64,000 bases of DNA from Hemiscyllium ocellatum (taxonomy: Eukaryota): positions 59,085,731 through 59,149,730 of the forward strand of contig NC_083404.1 in the NCBI RefSeq assembly GCF_020745735.1, given 5' to 3'. The notes beneath the pieces are model-generated. The model ran no database searches. It saw nothing but the letters and a program-made list of their open reading frames with translations, and was not told where the DNA came from. Numbering within the stretch: position 1 is the stretch's first letter; the number at the start of each line of letters is the position of its first letter. Positions 3,534-56,285 of the stretch are shown piece by piece. The position numbers and the translations under genes are program-made.

Positions 3534-3540
3534 TCTCTGT

Positions 3541-3727
3541 AGCCGAGAGTGTGATGCTGGAAAAGCACAGTAGGTCTGGCAGCATCCGAGGAGCAGGAGG
3601 ATTTCTGATGAAGGGCTTATGCCCGAAACATCGATTCTCCTGCTCCTCAGATGTTGCCAGATCTGTTATGCTTTTCCAGCATCACATTCTTGGCTCTGAT
3701 CTCCAGCATCTGCAGTCCTCACTTTCT
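3541..3727 (+). mobile_element. Short fold-back Penelope-related element with minimal hammerhead motif
   Basis: Inverted arms; CTGATGA-A-GGGC-TTAT-GCCC-GAAA-CA-TC at 3605-3632; shares the family 3' end CTCCAGCATCTGCAGTCCTCACTTTCT. Confidence 0.7.
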
Positions 3728-5494
3728 ACTACAGCATCTGTACCCCGGAACATTCAGCTGCCAGTCATTTCCATCCATCAGCCATTTTTTTTTGTAATAG
3801 CAAAGATATCCAGGTATCATATACCCATTTATGCCCTGAGTTTATTGCCTTACCTGTCAGGCCCCTTGCATTGAAGTAAATGCAGTTTAATTCATCAGGT
3901 GCTCTTGCCTGTCTTGCCTATTTAACTTGCTCTCTTTAACTTGTGTACAAGTCTCAACCTTCCCTCTTGCCGCACTACTGCTTAGGTTCTCTCCCTGTCA
4001 GACTAGTTTTAACACTCCTATGTAACTCAAGTAAAATTTCACTGCCAGGATATTCGTCCCCCTCCAGTCCAGGTGCAACCCTTCCCCTTGTACAGGTCAA
4101 CTTCTGCTCCAGAAGAAATCTCAATGATCCAAAAATCTAAATTTCTGCCCCTGCATCAGCTCTTCAGCCACACATTCATCCACCCTATCCTTCATGCTTA
4201 TTCAAAAGCTCATGGCTCCAGGTGTGATTCAGAGATTATTACTCTTAAGCCCCTGCATTTTAACCTCCTGCATACTTCCCTATATTCCCTCTGCAGGACG
4301 TCATTCCTCTTCCTACTTCTGTCACTGGTACCAATTTGGACAATGACCACTGACTGCTCAAGCCCCTCCATTTCCAAAAGCATCATTGCACAGCTCAAAT
4401 AACATACAACTGTTGATTGTTAAGTTGCAAACTCTTGTTTTTTTTAATCAATTACAGGAATCCAATTTCAATTTGTTTGTAATTCCAATAAGGAAAATAT
4501 GATCTCTTACAACTCCCATCCCTTCCTGCTGATTCTCTTCTTTCATCCAACCCGATTTCCCCTTCCCTCCCACTCCAAAGAATAAATAGGTAGTTGTTTT
4601 TGACCTTTCCACACTCAGTGGCCTGAATGACTTTCTTCTGTGCTATAGACTTATATGTCTCATTCATCCCCTCCCCTTACACTGCCCTCATCTCTCCATC
4701 CAACACTCCCAGCCTATTTCCCAAACTCTGAGGATAGTCAAGTATATTCAGGACTGAAATTGATAGATTTTCAGTTAGGCAATTAAGGGTTATGGGGATG
4801 TAGCAGTAAAGTGGAGCTGAAATCTAATAGAATGGTGGAGCAAACTTGAAAGGCTGAATGACTGACTTATGGTCTAATCACCTCAGTCCCAGATTAGTAC
4901 AGGTCTTCTTCAGGGTAATGTCTGAGGCCCAACCATCAACTATTCAATTACAGATTTTCCTCCATCATAAGAATGAAATGGGAGGTCAGCTGACAATTAG
5001 TGTATCGGTGTTAATCTGCAACTCCTCAAAAAATGAAACATTCTACTCCCCTATTTAGTGGAGATGAATGATATTCAAGTTTGAGTGATAAGCACCACTT
5101 GTGTCAGAAAGGGAAATTACCATCTCCAATGCGAGACTCTCACTATATGCAAAGGTAATATTGATTGGTTGATTTAATGTTGTCACATGTACCAAGATAC
5201 AGTGAAAAGTGTTGTTTTGCATGCTATACAAAGAGATTGTACCATATGAAGTGCATCAGGTCAACAGAACAGAGTACAGAGAGAAGATGCAGAGACAGGT
5301 AGAGAGAGAGATCAGAATTAACATTTGAGAGGTCTATTCAAAAGTCTGGTAACAACAGTGAAGTCGTTCTTAAATCTATGTATATTCAAAGTTCTATATT
5401 TTCTGCCTGATGGAAGAGGGTGGAAGAGAATATAACTGGGGTAGGAGGGGATCTTTAATTATGTTGGTAGCTTTTTCAAGGCAGTGGGAAGGAC

Positions 5495-15890: not shown

Positions 15891-16399
15891 TGCCACCAGT
15901 TTCTGTATCCTCATAACAGTTGAAGCAAACACTCAGACAGAGCATGGCTCTACCTTTTTTACCTTTATTCTGAGCCATGGAAAGAGAAATGATCGCGCAT
16001 GTACACATAAATATGAGTTCTTGTTCTTGTCTTAAACAGCAGATTCTTAAAGAATTATATAGTCACCTAAGAGGGGCAGCATCCAAATAAGGCAACATCA
16101 AAATTGACTGGGTGACCATTACAATCAGCGAGCATCAACAGTAAAGATTAAGCCATTTTGCATTACACAATGGATATTCCTCACCTTGATAACTGACATT
16201 ATACAATGGATATTCTTTACCTCATTACCTAACATTACTTAATGGATGCTCTTTACCTTGTTAAACCACCACCCTTGCGACTAGCACCTCATTGTTTACT
16301 GCAAGTTCTTATCTTGTCAAAGTCATGCTAGCTGAGCCTTTGTCAAGCAACCCTAAATTTAACTCTTTCCTACCTGCTCATACCTTATACACTTTCTCA
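15891..16399 (-). repeat. 3' LTR of the RBPMS2-carrying element
   Basis: TGAGAAAG...GGTGGCA on - strand; TATATAA box (~16055), AATAAA (15964-15969), three 36-bp U3 repeats at 16161/16197/16233. Confidence 0.85.
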
Positions 16400-16734
16400 T
16401 ACCCTCCTTTTATCATTTCATGATAACCACCTAGATGGCACTACCAGCTTACTGCCAGTACTTAAGTTATTAACACACAATTTGCAATGATAACAACAAC
16501 AAAAATTACTAGTCCATGCAGTAGATAGAATCTGCAGAATCCTCCCAAGTGGAAAAAGGTTCACCAGTAAAATTCTTAAATCCAGTCATTAGTGACCACT
16601 CCACCCCATCCAAGTCAAGTGGAAATGAGTCAGTTATCCAAAATCTACTTCAGTAAAGTTCAACCTGAAAACAAAATCCAGTCTATCCTACTGCATCACT
16701 CCACGGAGAATTCTGAATTTTTGGGTAAGAGCAG

Positions 16735-17028
16735 TTAAATACTTAGAGACTTCAATCTTGGAGATGTTTCAGAAGTAGGATACCAGCGCATCTGAGCATG
16801 AAGTACAGCAGCAGGCTAGGTGAAGGCAGCATTCTTTGGTGCTTCTGCTCACACTCTGCTGTCAAATGTAACAAAGCCAACTGGATGTTTTGATGTTAAC
16901 TTGATCAGTGAACCTCCGTATCCCATAAATGATCGAAAGAGAAGATGGTAAAGCTCACATGGTTTAATGTCCATAGGAAGGCCACTGACAAAAAGCCTCC
17001 CGACTTCCTCTTCACTTTTTGTGCTCAT
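16735..17028 (-). pseudogene. RBPMS2: Processed, internally deleted RBPMS2 (Hermes)/RBPMS-family retrocopy
   Basis: Translates [85 protein letters not shown]; intronless; two in-frame stops; FVTFDSR favours RBPMS2 over RBPMS, but paralog assignment needs a tree. Confidence 0.85.
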
Positions 17029-17406
17029 GACTGAGGAGCTGATTGAATCCGTTGGGTCAGGTTGTGGAGGGGAGGGTGGTGGTTCGAATGTGAATGGAGA
17101 AACTCTAGAGATGATGTTAGCTGCTGAAAGTATCTTAACATTTCCTCTTTTCTTACTCTGTATGTCTGGGGACTCGAACCCGTTTGTCAGTGCATTTACG
17201 AAGCAGTGTCTCTCGACTGAACAAATTATTGTTCGAGGAATCCATTGAAAGCGACTGATCATTTCCGATACACAGGAATATCAAGAGGGATCAAGATTTA
17301 AATATCACTTATGGGTCCATTAATCTCCAGATACCAATATTCCAGGTGATCGCTGACATTGTCCAATCGTAACTATTCGCTTGGACTCCTACCCAGCTCA
17401 CCATAG

Positions 17407-17877
17407 TGTCACCCCATTTCTGTATCCACATATCAGTCGAAGCAAACACTCAGACACAGTATGGCTCTACCTTCTTTACCTTTATTCCGAGCCATGTAAA
17501 GAGAGCGATTGCCCATGTACACAAAGACATGAGTTCTTGATCTTCTCTCTCAAACTGCAGATTCTTAAGGAATTATATAGTCACTTACACTCACTTCCAA
17601 ATAAGGCAACATCAAAATTGATTGGGTGACCTTTATGATCAGCAAGCATCAACATCAAAGTTTAAGCCATCTGGCATTACACAATGGATGTTCCTCACCT
17701 TGTTAATTGGCATTACACAATGGAGGTTCTTTACCTCGTTAAACCACTACCTTGTGTCCAGCACCTCACTGTTTACTCCAAGTTCTTATCTGGTCAAATT
17801 CATGCTTGCTGAGCATTTGTCATGCAACCTTAAACTTAATTATTTCCCTACTTGCTCATACCTTCTACACTTTCTCA
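17407..17877 (-). repeat. 5' LTR of the RBPMS2-carrying element
   Basis: TGAGAAAG...GGTGACA on - strand; CCAAT, TATATAA and AATAAA; two 36-bp repeats at 17675/17711. Confidence 0.85.
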
Positions 17878-17879
17878 GA

Positions 17880-19150
17880 ATAAGCAAGTCAGTTATCTGG
17901 AAGGTGCAGGTCTCAGTAGGATACAAATTCAGAAATCATTACAAGTTCAGCTACAGATTACAGGTCACAAATAAAGCAAATTAAGCACCAGGCTTTACTT
18001 CTAGAGGGATAGAACTTGAAAAGCAGGGATGTTACGCAAAATCTGAATTGAAACTTAGTCATAGCATTGTGTGCAGTCTGGTCACCATATCATAAATAGG
18101 AATTGGATAGAGTGCAGAAAAATTAAGAGTATATATAAGAAAGAATCAAGAGGCTGGATTTTTCTCCTTTGAAAAAAATGCTTATAGTGGCCAATATAAA
18201 CATTTAAAATTATTACTTTTTCTTAAAATAGAGTGGACACATTTCTTTTCGTCGAGAGAATGGCCATTTATAAGATAATTACCATGAAATGCAACAAATT
18301 TCAGAAAGCTGGCGAGAATGCAGAAATTCCTACCACAGGGTGTGACTGAAGCAAATAGTACAGATATAATTAAGGGGAAGCCAGGCAAGATAGGAGGGAG
18401 AAACAGACTTAGCGTTAAACTTGTATAAGAAAAGATCCATTTCAGTTGGACAAGTGCAACAACTTCTGGACTCCAGAATCTACCTGAAGAATTGGAGACA
18501 AGTGCAGAAACATTTCATGAGAATGTACAGATGTTCCTCATTCCTGAACCAGAGATATACTGCAGGACATTGGACTATGTGACTTGGAGAGGAGATTCGA
18601 CAGAGGTATTCAAAATCATGAGGTGTTTGGAGAGAAATAAGAAGATACTGGTTCCCTAGTGTAAGGATCAAGAAAGACAATTTTAAAATAACGGTCAAAA
18701 TATACAATAGCACCCCGAGGAAAAACATTTCCACATCATAATTAATTAGGGTTTAAAAATATAGTGGAGACAGGCTCAATTGAGGAGAAAGTGAGGACTG
18801 CAGATACTGGAGATTAGAGCTGAAAATGTGTTGCTGGAAAAGCACAGCAGGTCAGGCAGCGTCCAAAGAGCAGGAGAATCGACGTTTCAGGCATGACCTC
18901 TTCTTCAGGAAAGGCTCATGCCCGAAACGTCGATTCTCCTGCTCTTTGGATGCTGCCTGACCTGCTGCGCTTTTCCAGCAACACATTTTCAGCACAGGCT
19001 CAATTGAGACATTCAAAAGGGAATTAGACTTATTTGATAGGAAAATTATAGACAGTTACAGGGAAAAGGCTGAGGAAAGGTAGCATAAGGTGAATTGCTC
19101 ATTTGGAGAGCCACTGTGCATACAATGAGCTGAATGGCCTCCATCTGCAT
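17880..19150 (+). mobile_element. Old CR1 3' fragments (host of the LTR element; continues from ~15600-15890)
   Basis: Decayed CR1 ORF2 C-terminal sequence on both sides of the LTR element. Confidence 0.6.
18785..18993 (-). mobile_element. Fold-back Penelope-related element with hammerhead motif and perfect 15-bp TSD
   Basis: TSD ACAGGCTCAATTGAG at 18770-18784 and 18994-19008; ~75-bp near-perfect inverted arms; CTGAAGA...GAAACGTC on - strand. Confidence 0.85.
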
Positions 19151-23601: not shown

Positions 23602-23730
23602 GAGGAGAAAGTGAGGTCTGCAGGTGCTGGAGATCAGAGCTGAAAATGTGTTGCTGGAAAAGCGCAGCAGGTCAGGCAGCATCCAAGGAACAGGAGATTC
23701 GACGTTTCAGGCATAAGCCCTTCTTCAGGA
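23602..23730 (-). mobile_element. 5'-truncated copy of the hammerhead-bearing short element
   Basis: TSD ATGACTTGGATAG / ATGGCTTGGATAG (23589-23601, 23731-23743); intact core ATTC-CTGAAGA-A-GGGC-TTAT-GCCT-GAAA-CG-TC-GAAT. Confidence 0.8.
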
Positions 23731-24029
23731 ATGGCTTGGATAGACTGACTAAGTGAGCAAATACTTGGCAAATGCAATATAATGTGACAACATATAAGGT
23801 TGTGCACTTTGGTCACAAAAACACTAGGGAAATTATTATCTGAATGACAGTTTTGTAAAAGGTGAGGTGCAACGAGACCTGGGTGTCATGGTGGAATAGT
23901 CACCAAAGACTGGCTTGCAGGTGCAGCAGGCAGTGACGAAACATCCTGGTTTCCGTAGCGAGAGTCTTTGAGTATCTGAGTAAAGATGTCTTGCTGCAAT
24001 TGTACAGCTCCTTGTTGAAGCCACGTAGA

Positions 24030-39445: not shown

Positions 39446-40947
39446 GCCACAATGAGGAGTGTGGAATACATAGAAATTAATTATATATAGGTGTCCAATT
39501 TTCTTTTTTCTTTCACTTTTTTGTTTAGATAGGGAATTTCATTTTTGTAAATTAAGCACTTTTCTGTTCTCTCATTTTTTTTTTTGTAAATGAGTCAAAC
39601 GTTCCGGTGGAGTTGAGGAAAGGGGTGACCCGCTTAACTATTCTGCAATTAACTGAAAGAATGAGTGATTTGAACATGTTTTTGGACTCCAAGCTAGCCT
39701 ACAGATATGTGTCTTTGGCATTCCATTCATTCTTGTCCACATTTACATGATGCAAAAAGAGAATACTGTGGATGCCGGAAAACTGAAATAACAGGTCAAT
39801 GATCTGATGTGTCAAGTTTCTGTCCACACATGGTGCCTATTTCCAGCTTGCTTTCTTTCTTGCTTTGACATTTGCATCATGATATGTTTACATTTGAGCG
39901 AATCAGGTCCCATAAAATGTTCTCCACAGTTCCTTCCTTTAGTATTTGGTACTTCTATTATCTTGCCAGGTAATCCTGAACCTTAGAATCATAACTGTTA
40001 TGATGCAGATAGCACCCATTCGATCAATCGTGTTTCTACCAGGACATTGACCACTTTAATTTAGTGCCATTTTCTTGTGTTTACCTCATGCCCTTGTATG
40101 TTATTTCAATTTAAACTATCCAACCGATTCCCATTGATTGAACTTTCCCCACGCAAACCTCTAGGCAGTGCATTCCAGACCGTAACCATAGTATGTGAAA
40201 AAGATTTTTATTACATTTGCCAGGTTTGCAAGTTACATTTAATCTGTACCCTGTCAGTTTTGATCCTTTTTAATATGCAGAAAGTTTCTCCATATCAATG
40301 ATTATCAAAGTTATTGGATCTCATCTTAGTTGCCTTCTCTCTAAAGGAGAGCAGTTCCAGACTCTCTAATCTATTTCATAGCTGAGGTTTCTCATTCCTA
40401 GAACAATTCTCTAGTAAATCTCTTCTGCAGTCTCCAATGCATTCAAATCCTACTCCTGTCCCACCACTGTACAACAAGTGTCTGGTCCAAATTCAGCTTC
40501 AGCTCCTTGCTCTTGTACTTTATGCTCCCATTAATGAAGGTCAGGATACTGTATGCTTTGCACCTATACTACCACTTTCTCTGGTCAATGCACATCTACA
40601 TCCTAGTCCTCCTCCTCCTCAATCCTGTATGAAGTTTAATTCTTGAGTGAAAACATGCAAAATAATTGATAACATTCAATTTTTAAATCGCATTACTTAT
40701 TTTAGTTGCTGCAAATCATGCAGTCAGATATGAAGCAATAGTTGGGATCAAGCTTTAAGAAAAGTACAACCACCAAGTGCAAAATTTAAGATAACCATAT
40801 TGCCACGTGGCAAATTTTCTACATTTACTGAAGATGAATGCTGTTCCATTACATTTGCATGAAAATTCTGGATTTGTTCAAGATTTTAAAATGGCAAAAT
40901 GGAATTATTAATTGAATGTTTTAATAAAAGTCTGTTTTTTCTCATAG

Positions 40948-42450
40948 GACTGGATGTTGTGTTGTCCTTTGTGCTAAGATGTTGCGATTACTGAAGCATT
41001 CTTGTGATTTGGCAATTGGCTCTGAGCAACAAGTGACTCATACTGGAAGTTTTAAATCTGGGTGTCGATTGTTCGAACAGGACAGTAACTATGATGAAAT
41101 AGAAAGCACAACTCCCTCAGTTAATTACTCCAGTGGAACTGTAGAAGAGCTTGAATCACTTTTGGCCAACATGTCTCCTGTAGTGTGCAATGAAAATCGA
41201 TTGTCTGCTAGTAGGTCATCATCCTTTTCAGTTGAAAGAAAATGGTATGATCAGAAAAGAACTGATTTAACTTTACCAGCTCAGTTTGAAACCCCTAGGA
41301 GAACTTATAAAACAATTGCATTACGGCGGCGACTTCTTGAGTCGCACCTGTCCTCAAGTGGAAGCGTAGAATTATGTGGAACTCTTAGCCAATCGAATGA
41401 AGCCAGTGTGATGGAATTGTCTTGCACCAGAAAAGGTTATAAAGACTCTTTTTGTTCAGATAGTTCACTGGACTCACCTGAGGACTTTAACTCTCAAGCT
41501 TTGGCAACAAGCACTTTAAACAGCGTAGAAAGTGGCATTTCATGTAGAACTAAAAGATATTTATTTGCACAGCAGCGTACCTCTACAATAGATGACTTGC
41601 AGGATAAAAATGAGTTAGTACCTGCTGAATATATAACCCTTGAGCAATCCACTATAAGTAGTAAGCTTGATTTGAGCAGTTTCTCTTTCCCTGAAGACTA
41701 TGATGAATGCACTTCAACTGAGCCTTTCACATCACCATCAAACCATGGGCAATCTGAAATACATAAAGACAACCAGTTCCTTACTCCAGTGAACAGCTTT
41801 GTAATGAACCTCAGTATAAACTCAGCAGAGAGGGCATTGTCCAGAACTGCATCAGATGGCAAATTAAATATCTCAGCAACTGAGGACAGTGGCTACAATT
41901 CTATTGGCTTTGAAAAATCTGATTCCTTTTCAAACCATGAATGCTCCCTCCAAGAGTTGGTGCAAAACCAAAAAAGAACACCCAGGATGCTAGATTGCAA
42001 AAATTCCCAAAGAAGCTTCGAAAGAACCAAACGGTTATCCACTCTTCGTGAGCGAGGTTCCCAGTCAGAGGCAGATGATGAAGATAGAGCAGCTTTTCTA
42101 CTGAGATCGGACTGCAACTTAGAATCTTGCATTAAAGAAAATGAATCAGTGTTTGAGGAAGAAATTTGTGAGGAACCTCTAAAATTGAAGGATTTCTCTT
42201 GCACTCCTGCTTTAAAGTTAGTACAGGAAATGTGCATGAGAAAAAGAAAAAGACTTAGAGATGCCGCTGTGCATGATCCCCATCAGTCAGAGGAAAAGAC
42301 ATCGAGTGAATCTATGCCATCACTGTGTAGACTCATTGGCAGAAAAATGGGTTTGGATAAAGTGGATATCCTAAAAGAACTATTGAGCAGAAATCTGACC
42401 CATGTTCTTGCTACAATTTTGTACCACTTAACCATACATGATCTCGGCAG
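40948..42450 (+). CDS. FBXO43: FBXO43 (Emi2/XErp1) large coding exon; in-frame ATG at 40979
   Basis: Acceptor ctcatag|G; motifs LATSTL, QQRTSTIDD (CaMKII/Plk1 docking), DSGYNS degron, RLSTLRERGSQS (Rsk/PP2A region), start of F-box LIGRKMGLDKVDILKEL; donor AG|gtaaga. Confidence 0.95.
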
Positions 42451-43067
42451 GTAAGATGTATTCCATTCCAGAAAACCAGTTGGTGTCAGTTAGAACTGAA
42501 GAACATTTTTACACTTTAAAAGCCTTTTATTTACATTTGTACATTTCAGTTAAAAATTAACAATATGCAGTGTTCTCTAATTCTTTCACTATATATTTCT
42601 AACTGGTTATGCAACAGTCTTTTATATTATCCTCCAAAAAAATTATGAACGCTGATGTGTAGTAAACTTACTGTTGTATGACTTCTGCAAATTGTTGTAC
42701 TCTTGGAATAATAGGGATTCTTTTTGTGCCTCTTCTCAATAACTTCACCATCTATACTAGTAAGGTTAAAATTTTCTGTTTCATAGGCTGTAACTGCATT
42801 TTGATATTTTTGCTCTCTCATGCTCTCTCTCTCTCCCCGCTCCAAACAAATCATACTTCAACTTAATTTTCATTTGTTCATGGGATGTGAATGTCAGCAG
42901 AAAGCTTTATTGCTCTTGAGATGCTAAAATCTGGGCTGAAATTAACTAGACTGCCTATCTCCTATCTGAGAAGCACTGAATATTTGCTTTAAATGTCATT
43001 TGCCCATACTGTGTTTTGCTTGACACCATTTTGTTTTGCAAATGAAATGCTTGTATATTCATGCCAG

Positions 43068-48284: not shown

Positions 48285-48536
48285 GTTAGTTGAAATAAAT
48301 ATCTTGGTACCTTCTGTAAGTTATCAATCTCCAGACAAGATTGTAAAAATTCAGTTTTCAAGCAAGTAGAATTGTAATATCATGTGTATTGGTACTGTCA
48401 GCTGCACACTCTCAGCATTGGTAGGGCAGTTGCTTTGAAGCACCTATAATTAGGAATCATAAGATGGAAAATAAATCCAAACATTTGCTGGTGATGCAAG
48501 TTTTTATTTCCAGTAAGGTGCTGATCTCTTTGCAGG

Positions 48537-48602
48537 AGAAAGTGAGGGCTGCAGATGCTGGAGATCAGAGCTGAAAATGTGTTGCTGGAAAAGCGCAGCA
48601 GT
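48537..48602 (-). mobile_element. Very short 5'-truncated copy of the fold-back/hammerhead element family
   Basis: 12-bp TSD TCTCTTTGCAGG at 48525-48536 and 48603-48614; same 3' end as the 18785 and 23602 copies. Confidence 0.8.
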
Positions 48603-49049
48603 TCTCTTTGCAGGTCTATTATATAAATTGCAATATATTTTTTCTTTCAAAAGAATTTTTTGAGAATTTTAATTTTTTTGGAATCCATTCTTGATATTTG
48701 GCATTTCTTTCAATTTGCAGTTACAAACCCATGAATTCAGAGTAGACGTAGGACATTTGGTCCTTTGCCTTCTCTGTCAATCAGTAAGATCAAGGATGGT
48801 TCTTTTGTGCTTCAAACTCTACATTCTCATCTACCTTCAATTTCCTTTGTCTATAAGGAATCTAAGGTTATCCATCTAATTCCATCTTTTAAAAAAAAAT
48901 GCAGATCCCACCTGCATTGCCTTCTGAGGCTTTGTTCCAAAGTGTCTCAACTGAGAAATAAAGAAATCTCATCTACCTTAAAACAGTGACTCCTAATTAT
49001 AAAACAGTGCCCTCTAATTCTGGTCTCAGCTACAAAAGTAAGCATCTTT

Positions 49050-55278: not shown

Positions 55279-55527
55279 GTTGCACAAACTCTCTTTAATG
55301 ATGAAGCTCTAAAACCATGCCCACGATGTCAATCGCCAGCTCGGTACAATCCAATGAAGAAACGAGGCCTCTGCAGTCGAGAAGGGTGCGCATTTGACTT
55401 CTGCACTCAGTGTTTTTGTGGTTTCCATGGTTCTAAAGAATGTGTCAGCAGGTCTACAAAACGTTTAGTCAATAAAGGAGGACCACCAGGAAGTGCTCAA
55501 AGCAAGCGGAATTTGAAGAGATTGTAA
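55279..55527 (+). CDS. FBXO43: FBXO43 last coding exon (249 nt; ZBR zinc-binding region and RL tail)
   Basis: caccag|GTT; [55 protein letters not shown]...[13 protein letters not shown]. Confidence 0.97.
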
Positions 55528-56285
55528 TCTTGTGTATATATGAAAACAGATGAATCTCCCCCAACACTCTTCAATTTCTTGGATGTTATAAGCTGTTTGT
55601 GCACCTGTATGCAAACATTTAAGAAAGAACTACTTGATGTTTACCTAAATGAGTTTGTACATAATGAATAAGTGAAGAGGGGGAGTTTGTAATGCTGAGA
55701 TTACAACCGTTCCCCTTTCACTTAATTGTAAATGCATATTTGATTTTAGCAATTTTATTTTCCTGTTTTCCAAATAATTCTGTATTCTTTGATGTGCACT
55801 ATGTAATAGAAACAACTTGCTCCAAAGTCACTGTGAATTTTTATGAACTACTTTAGGGCAACAATTAAACAAGCCAATCCAAGATAATGAATATATGATG
55901 AAAATGTAATCATAAACCACTGGACCAACGCTATGAACTTTGGTTATCTTAGATTAAACAAATGGCGATATAAACTTGTCTATTTTCCTTCTAACTCCCT
56001 CCTCCTCAACCCCTTTTTCTTTAAGTTAAAAGAAAATGTTATTGGACACTGAGAAAATGAAGACCATGGAGTTTGAAATCTAACTTTCATCCATTGTTTC
56101 AGATGTTTGTGAAGAACTGTTAATTGTTGGCTCTGCCCAAATTCGAGACAACAGGTATGTGTAAATATATAGTAGGTTTCAAATGTATATAGTTTTATGT
56201 GTTAATAGAAATTGTCTTTTAAATGGTTTTAATCTGTATGCTTAATAAAGTTATTTTAATAAAACTCCTAAAAAATATTGTGAAT
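55528..56285 (+). promoter_or_regulatory. FBXO43: FBXO43 3'UTR with CPEs, Pumilio elements and two AATAAA signals
   Basis: AATAAA at 56244 and 56258; TTTTAT/TTTTAAT at 55753, 55839, 56193, 56227, 56254; TGTANATA at 55533, 55656, 56160, 56184. Confidence 0.75.

Follow-up and report, generated by a model that had tools for sequence, protein, structure and literature searches.

The window (the whole 64,000-nucleotide stretch of Hemiscyllium ocellatum DNA analysed here) carries an LTR element on the minus strand at 17877-15891 (Table 1). On one side of the element is a CpG island, near 21.2 kb, and on the other the first coding exon (about 15.15 kb) of a gene which we take, from a protein motif, to be POLR2K-like. 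This gene spans 21150-10270 on the minus strand, with coding exons near 15175-15091, 11500-11410 and 10290 and a putative non-coding exon 1 at the CpG island near 21.1 kb. The element probably sits in intron 1 of this gene in sense orientation. Such an insertion brings two AATAAA signals to the putative intron, yet it is common to several organisms. An FBXO5/FBXO43-family gene, presumably FBXO43/Emi2 judging by its neighbour, is found on the plus strand (40928-42454 and about 55300-55540; PDB match to FBXO5, E 5.5e-6) and consists of a large exon and a cysteine-rich last exon. There is also a short MITE- or SINE-like repeat at 18782-18993 with 85-nt inverted arms that are 93% complementary; its relatives lie at 3537-3730, 23602-23736 and 48531-48605.

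Table 1. Parts of the element in the window, in the order of the minus strand
Feature	Position	Strand	Remarks
5' LTR, type A	17407..17877	-	471 bp; TATA 17579, AATAAA 17486
Decayed PBS, tRNA-Arg(ACG)-like	17386..17403	-	13/18 vs 3' end of genomic tRNA-Arg(ACG) gene
Leader	17149..17385	-	71% identical to leader of L175, a second, cargo-free ERV lineage
Integrase 3' remnant of donor ERV, then linker	17052..17148	-	17148-17089 85% identical to L124
Captured spliced RBPMS2 mRNA	16540..17051	-	5' UTR remnant, ATG 17028, ~195 nt 3' UTR
Donor env 3' end, membrane-spanning region	16412..16547	-	assigned by position and hydrophobicity
Polypurine tract	16400..16411	-	directly before 3' LTR
3' LTR, type A	15891..16399	-	509 bp; one extra 36-bp unit; TATA 16061, AATAAA 15969

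An earlier sequence-only reading of this DNA had described two diverged TG...CA direct repeats with TATA and AATAAA signals. They are indeed a pair of LTRs, identical in 404 of 464 aligned columns (87%, K2P 0.143), with the signals located in each; the TATA motif is TATATAA in both, and the difference between the two is the 36-bp unit. The primer binding site (PBS) for tRNA-Arg and the polypurine tract (PPT) proposed in that reading were located as well. The PBS is decayed in the window; in five other copies it matches tRNA-Arg(ACG) at 14-15 of 18 positions, and in L032 it is not recognisable (11/18). A clean target site duplication (TSD) is absent from the window copy, as had been noted: ATTC stands against TTGT, or against ATTG if one A is shared.

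The interior had been described as holding no recognisable gag, pol or env. Pfam gives no match in 17030-17400, and the viral remnants are therefore invisible from the window sequence alone. Comparison with other loci nevertheless corrects that description at two places. The first is the integrase remnant, where about 60 nt are all that matches the donor's pol in the window; it is followed by a short linker rich in proline codons that is common to the cargo copies. The second is the env tail, of which 16547-16450 is 86% identical to the donor env 3' end and the first 8 nt are a microhomology that it has in common with RBPMS2 exon 8. Near the 3' end of the leader the window copy is missing about 1.8 kb of the usual interior (a tandem array and a 1.4-kb segment), and it is 1.8 kb shorter than L031. 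The intronless RBPMS2-like coding sequence was found as claimed, in the same orientation as the LTRs. It encodes a broken RBPMS-family RRM (PDB match to the RBPMS RRM, E 4e-21): a 255-nt deletion common to the family lies near 16830, and the open reading frame has premature stops at 16851-16849 and 16818-16816 and small indels.

The host RBPMS2 gene, found by a search with a shark RBPMS2 protein, has 8 exons over 111 kb (C181:20445888-20557302). The window cargo joins exons 1/2, 2/3, 3/4, 6/7 and 7/8 of this gene without introns, at junctions near 17005, 16924, 16885, 16792 and 16735; it jumps from late exon 4 to late exon 6, so that its content is exons 1-4 and 6-8. It stops about 210 nt into exon 8, some 2 kb before the first AATAAA that this exon contains. 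The five junctions confirm that the cargo is a copy of spliced host RBPMS2 mRNA.

The sequence-only reading had also supposed a whole family of such elements flanked by a dispersed LTR, and the genome bears out both suppositions. With the cargo as probe there were 528 candidates (40 were scored, and those other than the window copy itself are 75-82% identical), with the LTR 1554 (40 scored, 79-84%) and with two probes from the halves of the middle segment 432 and 544; all of these are first-look numbers and not copy numbers. A search with the RBPMS2 protein gave 2007 candidates, with 213 matches among the 150 scored. These counts point to a cargo family of several hundred loci. Among 20 loci fetched behind the leader, 18 run into the same short-cargo interior, one breaks off and L175 runs into pol. 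Full-length short-cargo copies are about 3.8-4.0 kb long, in the order LTR, PBS, leader, tandem array, 1.4-kb non-coding segment, integrase remnant, cargo, env tail, PPT, LTR. A clean 4-bp TSD is present in eight of the 13 copies with both ends located and missing from the window copy and four others (four cargo-family loci without a located end and two cargo-free loci are left out of this count). LTR-LTR K2P is 0.11-0.18 in 11 copies. Many dispersed copies keep the cis signals without coding capacity, and all cargo copies examined are old and broken.

Some further features of the family were observed. The first 100 bases of L169, L171-L173, L175 and L179-L181 have the same leader as the window copy and a PBS-like sequence unlike its Arg-like one, which we take to be tRNA-Ser-like; this suggests a primer switch within the family. 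Two long-cargo copies, L079 and G000:C61:42775165, lie 160 kb apart on C61 and have identical search scores, suggesting a local segmental duplication. The 1.4-kb AT-rich segment of the full-length short-cargo copies (L031:1900-3300, minus strand) has no match in Pfam or Rfam and only two weak 60-nt matches in 18 ERV loci and the 190-kb host gene region. The top 40 genomic matches of each of its halves look like family copies (76-84%). This segment could be a second captured host sequence.

A long-cargo form, represented by 21 copies, has the whole RRM, an LTR and PBS unlike those of the window copy (the PBS is presumably tRNA-Ser-like) and, of the viral genes, what is left of gag, RNase H and integrase. 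For the RNase H piece, matches to XMRV/MLV structures were found (E 1e-5). Of 18 loci fetched by likeness to this piece, four carry the cargo and several others are cargo-free ERVs with the gene order RT, RNase H, integrase, env, tail. In four cargo-free donors Pfam finds RVT_1, RNase_H, rve, Integrase_H2C2 and MLVIN_C, and all four are broken; one of the four has an env HR1-HR2 match of E 1e-4, which is below the Pfam cut-off. When the donor RNase H piece was searched against proteins, none of the 66 candidates proved to be a relative. A TSD length of 4 bp is typical of class I ERVs. Going by the retroviral RT, RNase H and MLV-type integrase C-terminus predicted in the donors, together with the 4-bp TSDs in cargo-family copies, the donor is a decayed class I (gamma/epsilon-like) ERV.

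In the donors about 1.3-1.6 kb separate the integrase from the env tail, and this is the place that RBPMS2 occupies in the cargo copies. This arrangement of matching segments shows that the RBPMS2 mRNA replaced env and not all genes. The earlier proposal that the cargo stands in place of the element's own genes thus holds for env; gag and pol disappeared through deletions distinct from this replacement.

The later history of the family is recorded in its deletions and LTRs. An exact in-frame deletion of 255 nt is common to 31 of the 39 short-cargo copies, and of the rest, most have a poor alignment in this part or are truncated where the locus ends. In the long-cargo form a different deletion of about 184 nt is present in 12 of 21 copies, and six have no large deletion. 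At least three LTR types follow the short-cargo interiors: two of them cluster with the cargo-free donors L124 and L128 and a third is that of the window. A counterpart of the window-type ends was found at L175, which has pieces of this LTR (67-88%), the same leader (78%) together with its tandem repeats, a gag start and pol with about 40-55% protein identity to the donor's integrase. There is no cargo in its 9.1 kb, where its 3' end was not found. To judge from this single locus, the ends and the interior of the window form most likely come from different ERV lineages, the cassette of one having been set between the ends of another. A tree built on the viral remnants that the copies share (35 copies, L131 left out for a missing part) is star-like, with two starred branches, and places 18 of the 20 short-cargo copies in one starred group whatever their LTR. 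We infer that the short-cargo form came from the long one, an order that the tree does not prove. The window copy would have arisen late in this history, with a further deletion and on a second LTR backbone.

The sequence-only reading had judged this copy to be old from its diverged LTRs, and data from other organisms agree. Contigs of single-copy depth from runs labelled organisms B, C and D cross from the flank into the LTR with about 4-5% differences (4/23 runs examined), so the insertion predates the splits from these three. Those of B and C also cross the window's own deletion. The divergence of the window LTRs is about three times that of the flank. Two presumed RNA runs cover the flanks too and are therefore uninformative on transcription of the element. 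Predicted 'RBPMS2-like' proteins P0001, P0013 and P0018 of Chiloscyllium plagiosum have the same deletion and integrase-derived N-termini; they are products of this element. No element-type predicted protein from another species was present among the best 120 of 453 matches. Of the host-to-copy dS, only about 0.12 is left once the copies' own share is subtracted. This remainder is near the change of the host lineage alone since the burst, and capture therefore probably took place shortly before amplification. For sharks a direct rate of 7e-10 per site per generation is given in PMC10587355. It would turn 0.07 changes per site into about 1e8 generations, which is not credible as a long-term rate, and relative age alone is given here for that reason.

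The cargo decays nearly neutrally. Copy-to-copy dN/dS over 72 codons is 0.81 [0.59-1.11] in 37 short copies and 0.77 [0.54-1.11] in 19 long copies; these values leave out four copies with poor alignment and come from a sample that favours the best-matching copies, and both point estimates are below 1 with intervals that include it. Between the short and long forms dN is 0.015 and dS 0.011. The UTR segment diverges by 0.196 as against 0.174 at synonymous sites. Constraint was tested on the cargo protein and on the UTR segment and found on neither.

These values bear on the question why the family became so large. The captured RBPMS2 RNA may have steered the element to the oocyte Balbiani body or germ plasm and so aided its spread. 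In zebrafish the Balbiani body is enriched in rbpms2a transcripts, and in Xenopus it is enriched in hermes RNA (PMC6049948). Most of the captured 3' UTR survives both of the shared deletions, and there are about 16 times as many candidates for the cargo as for the donor env (528 against 33 at first look, where the one env probe may miss diverged donors). However, the UTR diverges as fast as synonymous sites, and it is only the first ~210 nt of a 3' UTR that extends much further in the host gene. L121 and L178 have lost nearly all of the cargo, and non-autonomous elements tend to out-multiply their parents anyway (PMC5131818, in the part cited). We consider such steering unlikely. It is equally doubtful that a localisation signal from RBPMS2 let the element out-multiply its parent about tenfold and pass between several ERV backbones. 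If true, this would be a vertebrate retroelement with germ-line targeting gained by stealing a host mRNA address.

Still less probable is a second explanation, in which selection acted, while the family was active, on an RBPMS2 protein made by the element, be it functional or dominant-negative; the like has been proposed for the crocodilian captures. The 255-nt deletion keeps the frame and the C-terminal peptide, but one deletion in three is in frame by chance and this one takes out the second half of the RRM. The public predicted protein P0001 of the short form is open from start to stop, while most copies have frameshifts or stops within the first 72 codons and the shared deletion of ~184 nt takes out the stop codon. 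The dN/dS estimates slightly below 1 are set against a dN between forms that is not below dS. A selected protein is thus, on this analysis of codons, very unlikely.

The junctions of the cargo bear on how it was acquired. In the long-cargo copies, where the original 5' junction is visible (it is deleted in the window copy), some 110 nt of RT, out of order, lie between the integrase 3' part and the RBPMS2 5' UTR, and this RT piece has 7 nt in common with the 5' UTR at the joint. At the 3' joint the overlap is 8 nt, between exon 8 and the membrane-spanning region of env. Random switch points reach 7 nt (5') in 0.0005 and 8 nt (3') in 0.0001 of 200,000 draws. A poly(A) tail or a TSD of the cargo's own, which the earlier reading had named as the mark of a LINE retrocopy, is absent from the nine cargo copies in which the 3' junction could be aligned (the alignment of a tenth, L085, was faulty). 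That a LINE-made processed pseudogene landed in an existing ERV and was then amplified is therefore largely refuted and has next to no probability left: LINE fragments, which we take to be CR1/L2-like, are abundant in the window and later deletions could erase a tail, but the cargo ends inside exon 8 and runs into env, which is replaced and not interrupted, and there is microhomology at both ends with the out-of-order RT piece at the 5' one.

The switch points that the sequence-only reading wished to see mapped would be the 7- and 8-nt microhomologies. Microhomology at both ends without poly(A) is the signature described in the cited part of PMC5131818, and from this junction anatomy we infer template switching. 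Overall, we are highly confident in the account as a whole: ERV capture of RBPMS2 mRNA by template switching, an env-less passenger family and a later change of backbone. A class I (gamma/epsilon-like) ERV would have co-packaged spliced RBPMS2 mRNA, which is plausible because fish oocytes contain much RBPMS2 RNA, part of it localised to the Balbiani body (PMC6049948). Its reverse transcriptase would have switched templates at short shared sequences. The product would have carried the integrase 3' part, the ~110-nt RT piece, RBPMS2 from the 5' UTR to about 210 nt of the 3' UTR, the last ~140 nt of env, the PPT and the LTR. This env-less product would then have been stripped of most of gag-pol, with PBS, leader, PPT and LTRs left in place, and would have depended for its copying in the germ line on helper ERVs acting in trans. 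The non-autonomous nature proposed in the earlier reading agrees with the missing coding capacity and the integrase-type 4-bp TSDs; its trans step stays conditional, since every donor copy fetched is broken, as are the related cargo-free partners L124, L128 and L175, and no intact helper was found among them. A derived form would have lost the RT piece and 255 nt of coding sequence, gained the 1.4-kb segment and recombined onto the LTRs and leader of other ERV lineages; the mosaic is observed, and this order of events is our reconstruction. The derived form would have made most copies seen, with the window copy as one that suffered the further 1.8-kb deletion. The cargo would be a passenger, its spread best explained by the short, env-less, non-autonomous structure. 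The element in the window is thus confirmed as a dead copy of an old retrovirus-derived element with env swapped for spliced RBPMS2 mRNA.

The mechanism as such is already known, and it is the scale and the backbone change that are distinctive. The family has the characters of LTR-mediated retrocopies (Tan et al. 2016, PMC5131818): it is intronless, internal ORFs are replaced between LTRs, there is microsimilarity, and neither poly(A) nor TSD accompanies the cargo. In the cited part of that work, too, a partial mRNA replaces part of the internal ORFs with both LTRs kept and no poly(A), microsimilarity occurs at the switch points (median 6 bp, as compared to 7 and 8 nt here), more than two switches are possible, and further copying proceeds as a non-autonomous element. 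The cases described there are young and at one or few sites, whereas the RBPMS2 family has hundreds of candidates, deletion subfamilies and several LTR types. FAM8A1 in a human ERV, as cited in PMC5131818, is similar in its spliced mRNA, its microsimilarity at the fusion and its present state as a pseudogene; it is described in that citation as a single case, and a backbone change is not reported there.

The crocodilian captures, nectin3 in CrocERV31 and KIT-ligand in CrocERV29 (Chong et al. 2014, PMC4299795, cited part), are likewise in old vertebrate ERVs, common to related species and accompanied by deletion derivatives, and nectin3 replaces env as RBPMS2 does. They belong to ERV4-type groups, have 6 and 9 copies and keep ORFs under purifying selection. 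In contrast, the RBPMS2 family has a class I-like donor, far more copies and no detected constraint; with dN/dS of about 0.8 and most copies broken, ORF retention of the crocodilian type is not seen in it. The exchange of ends resembles recKoRV (koala retrovirus and PhER, PMC6112702), in which recombination, partly at microhomologies, lets the interior of one retroelement be remobilised between the ends of another. recKoRV is very young and no host mRNA cargo is described in the cited part, while the RBPMS2 family is old and has a cargo. In the literature searched, outside subscription journals and supplements, we found no report of RBPMS2 in an LTR retrocopy, and a prior entry in a repeat library (Repbase/Dfam) is possible. 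The other vertebrate ERV captures compared here survive, according to the cited parts, in one to nine copies, and that of RBPMS2 in hundreds. Host gene, cargo-free donor, full-length intermediate and derived forms all survive in one genome, and for this reason the RBPMS2 family is a natural record in which transduction by a retrovirus, deletion and LTR exchange can be followed well.
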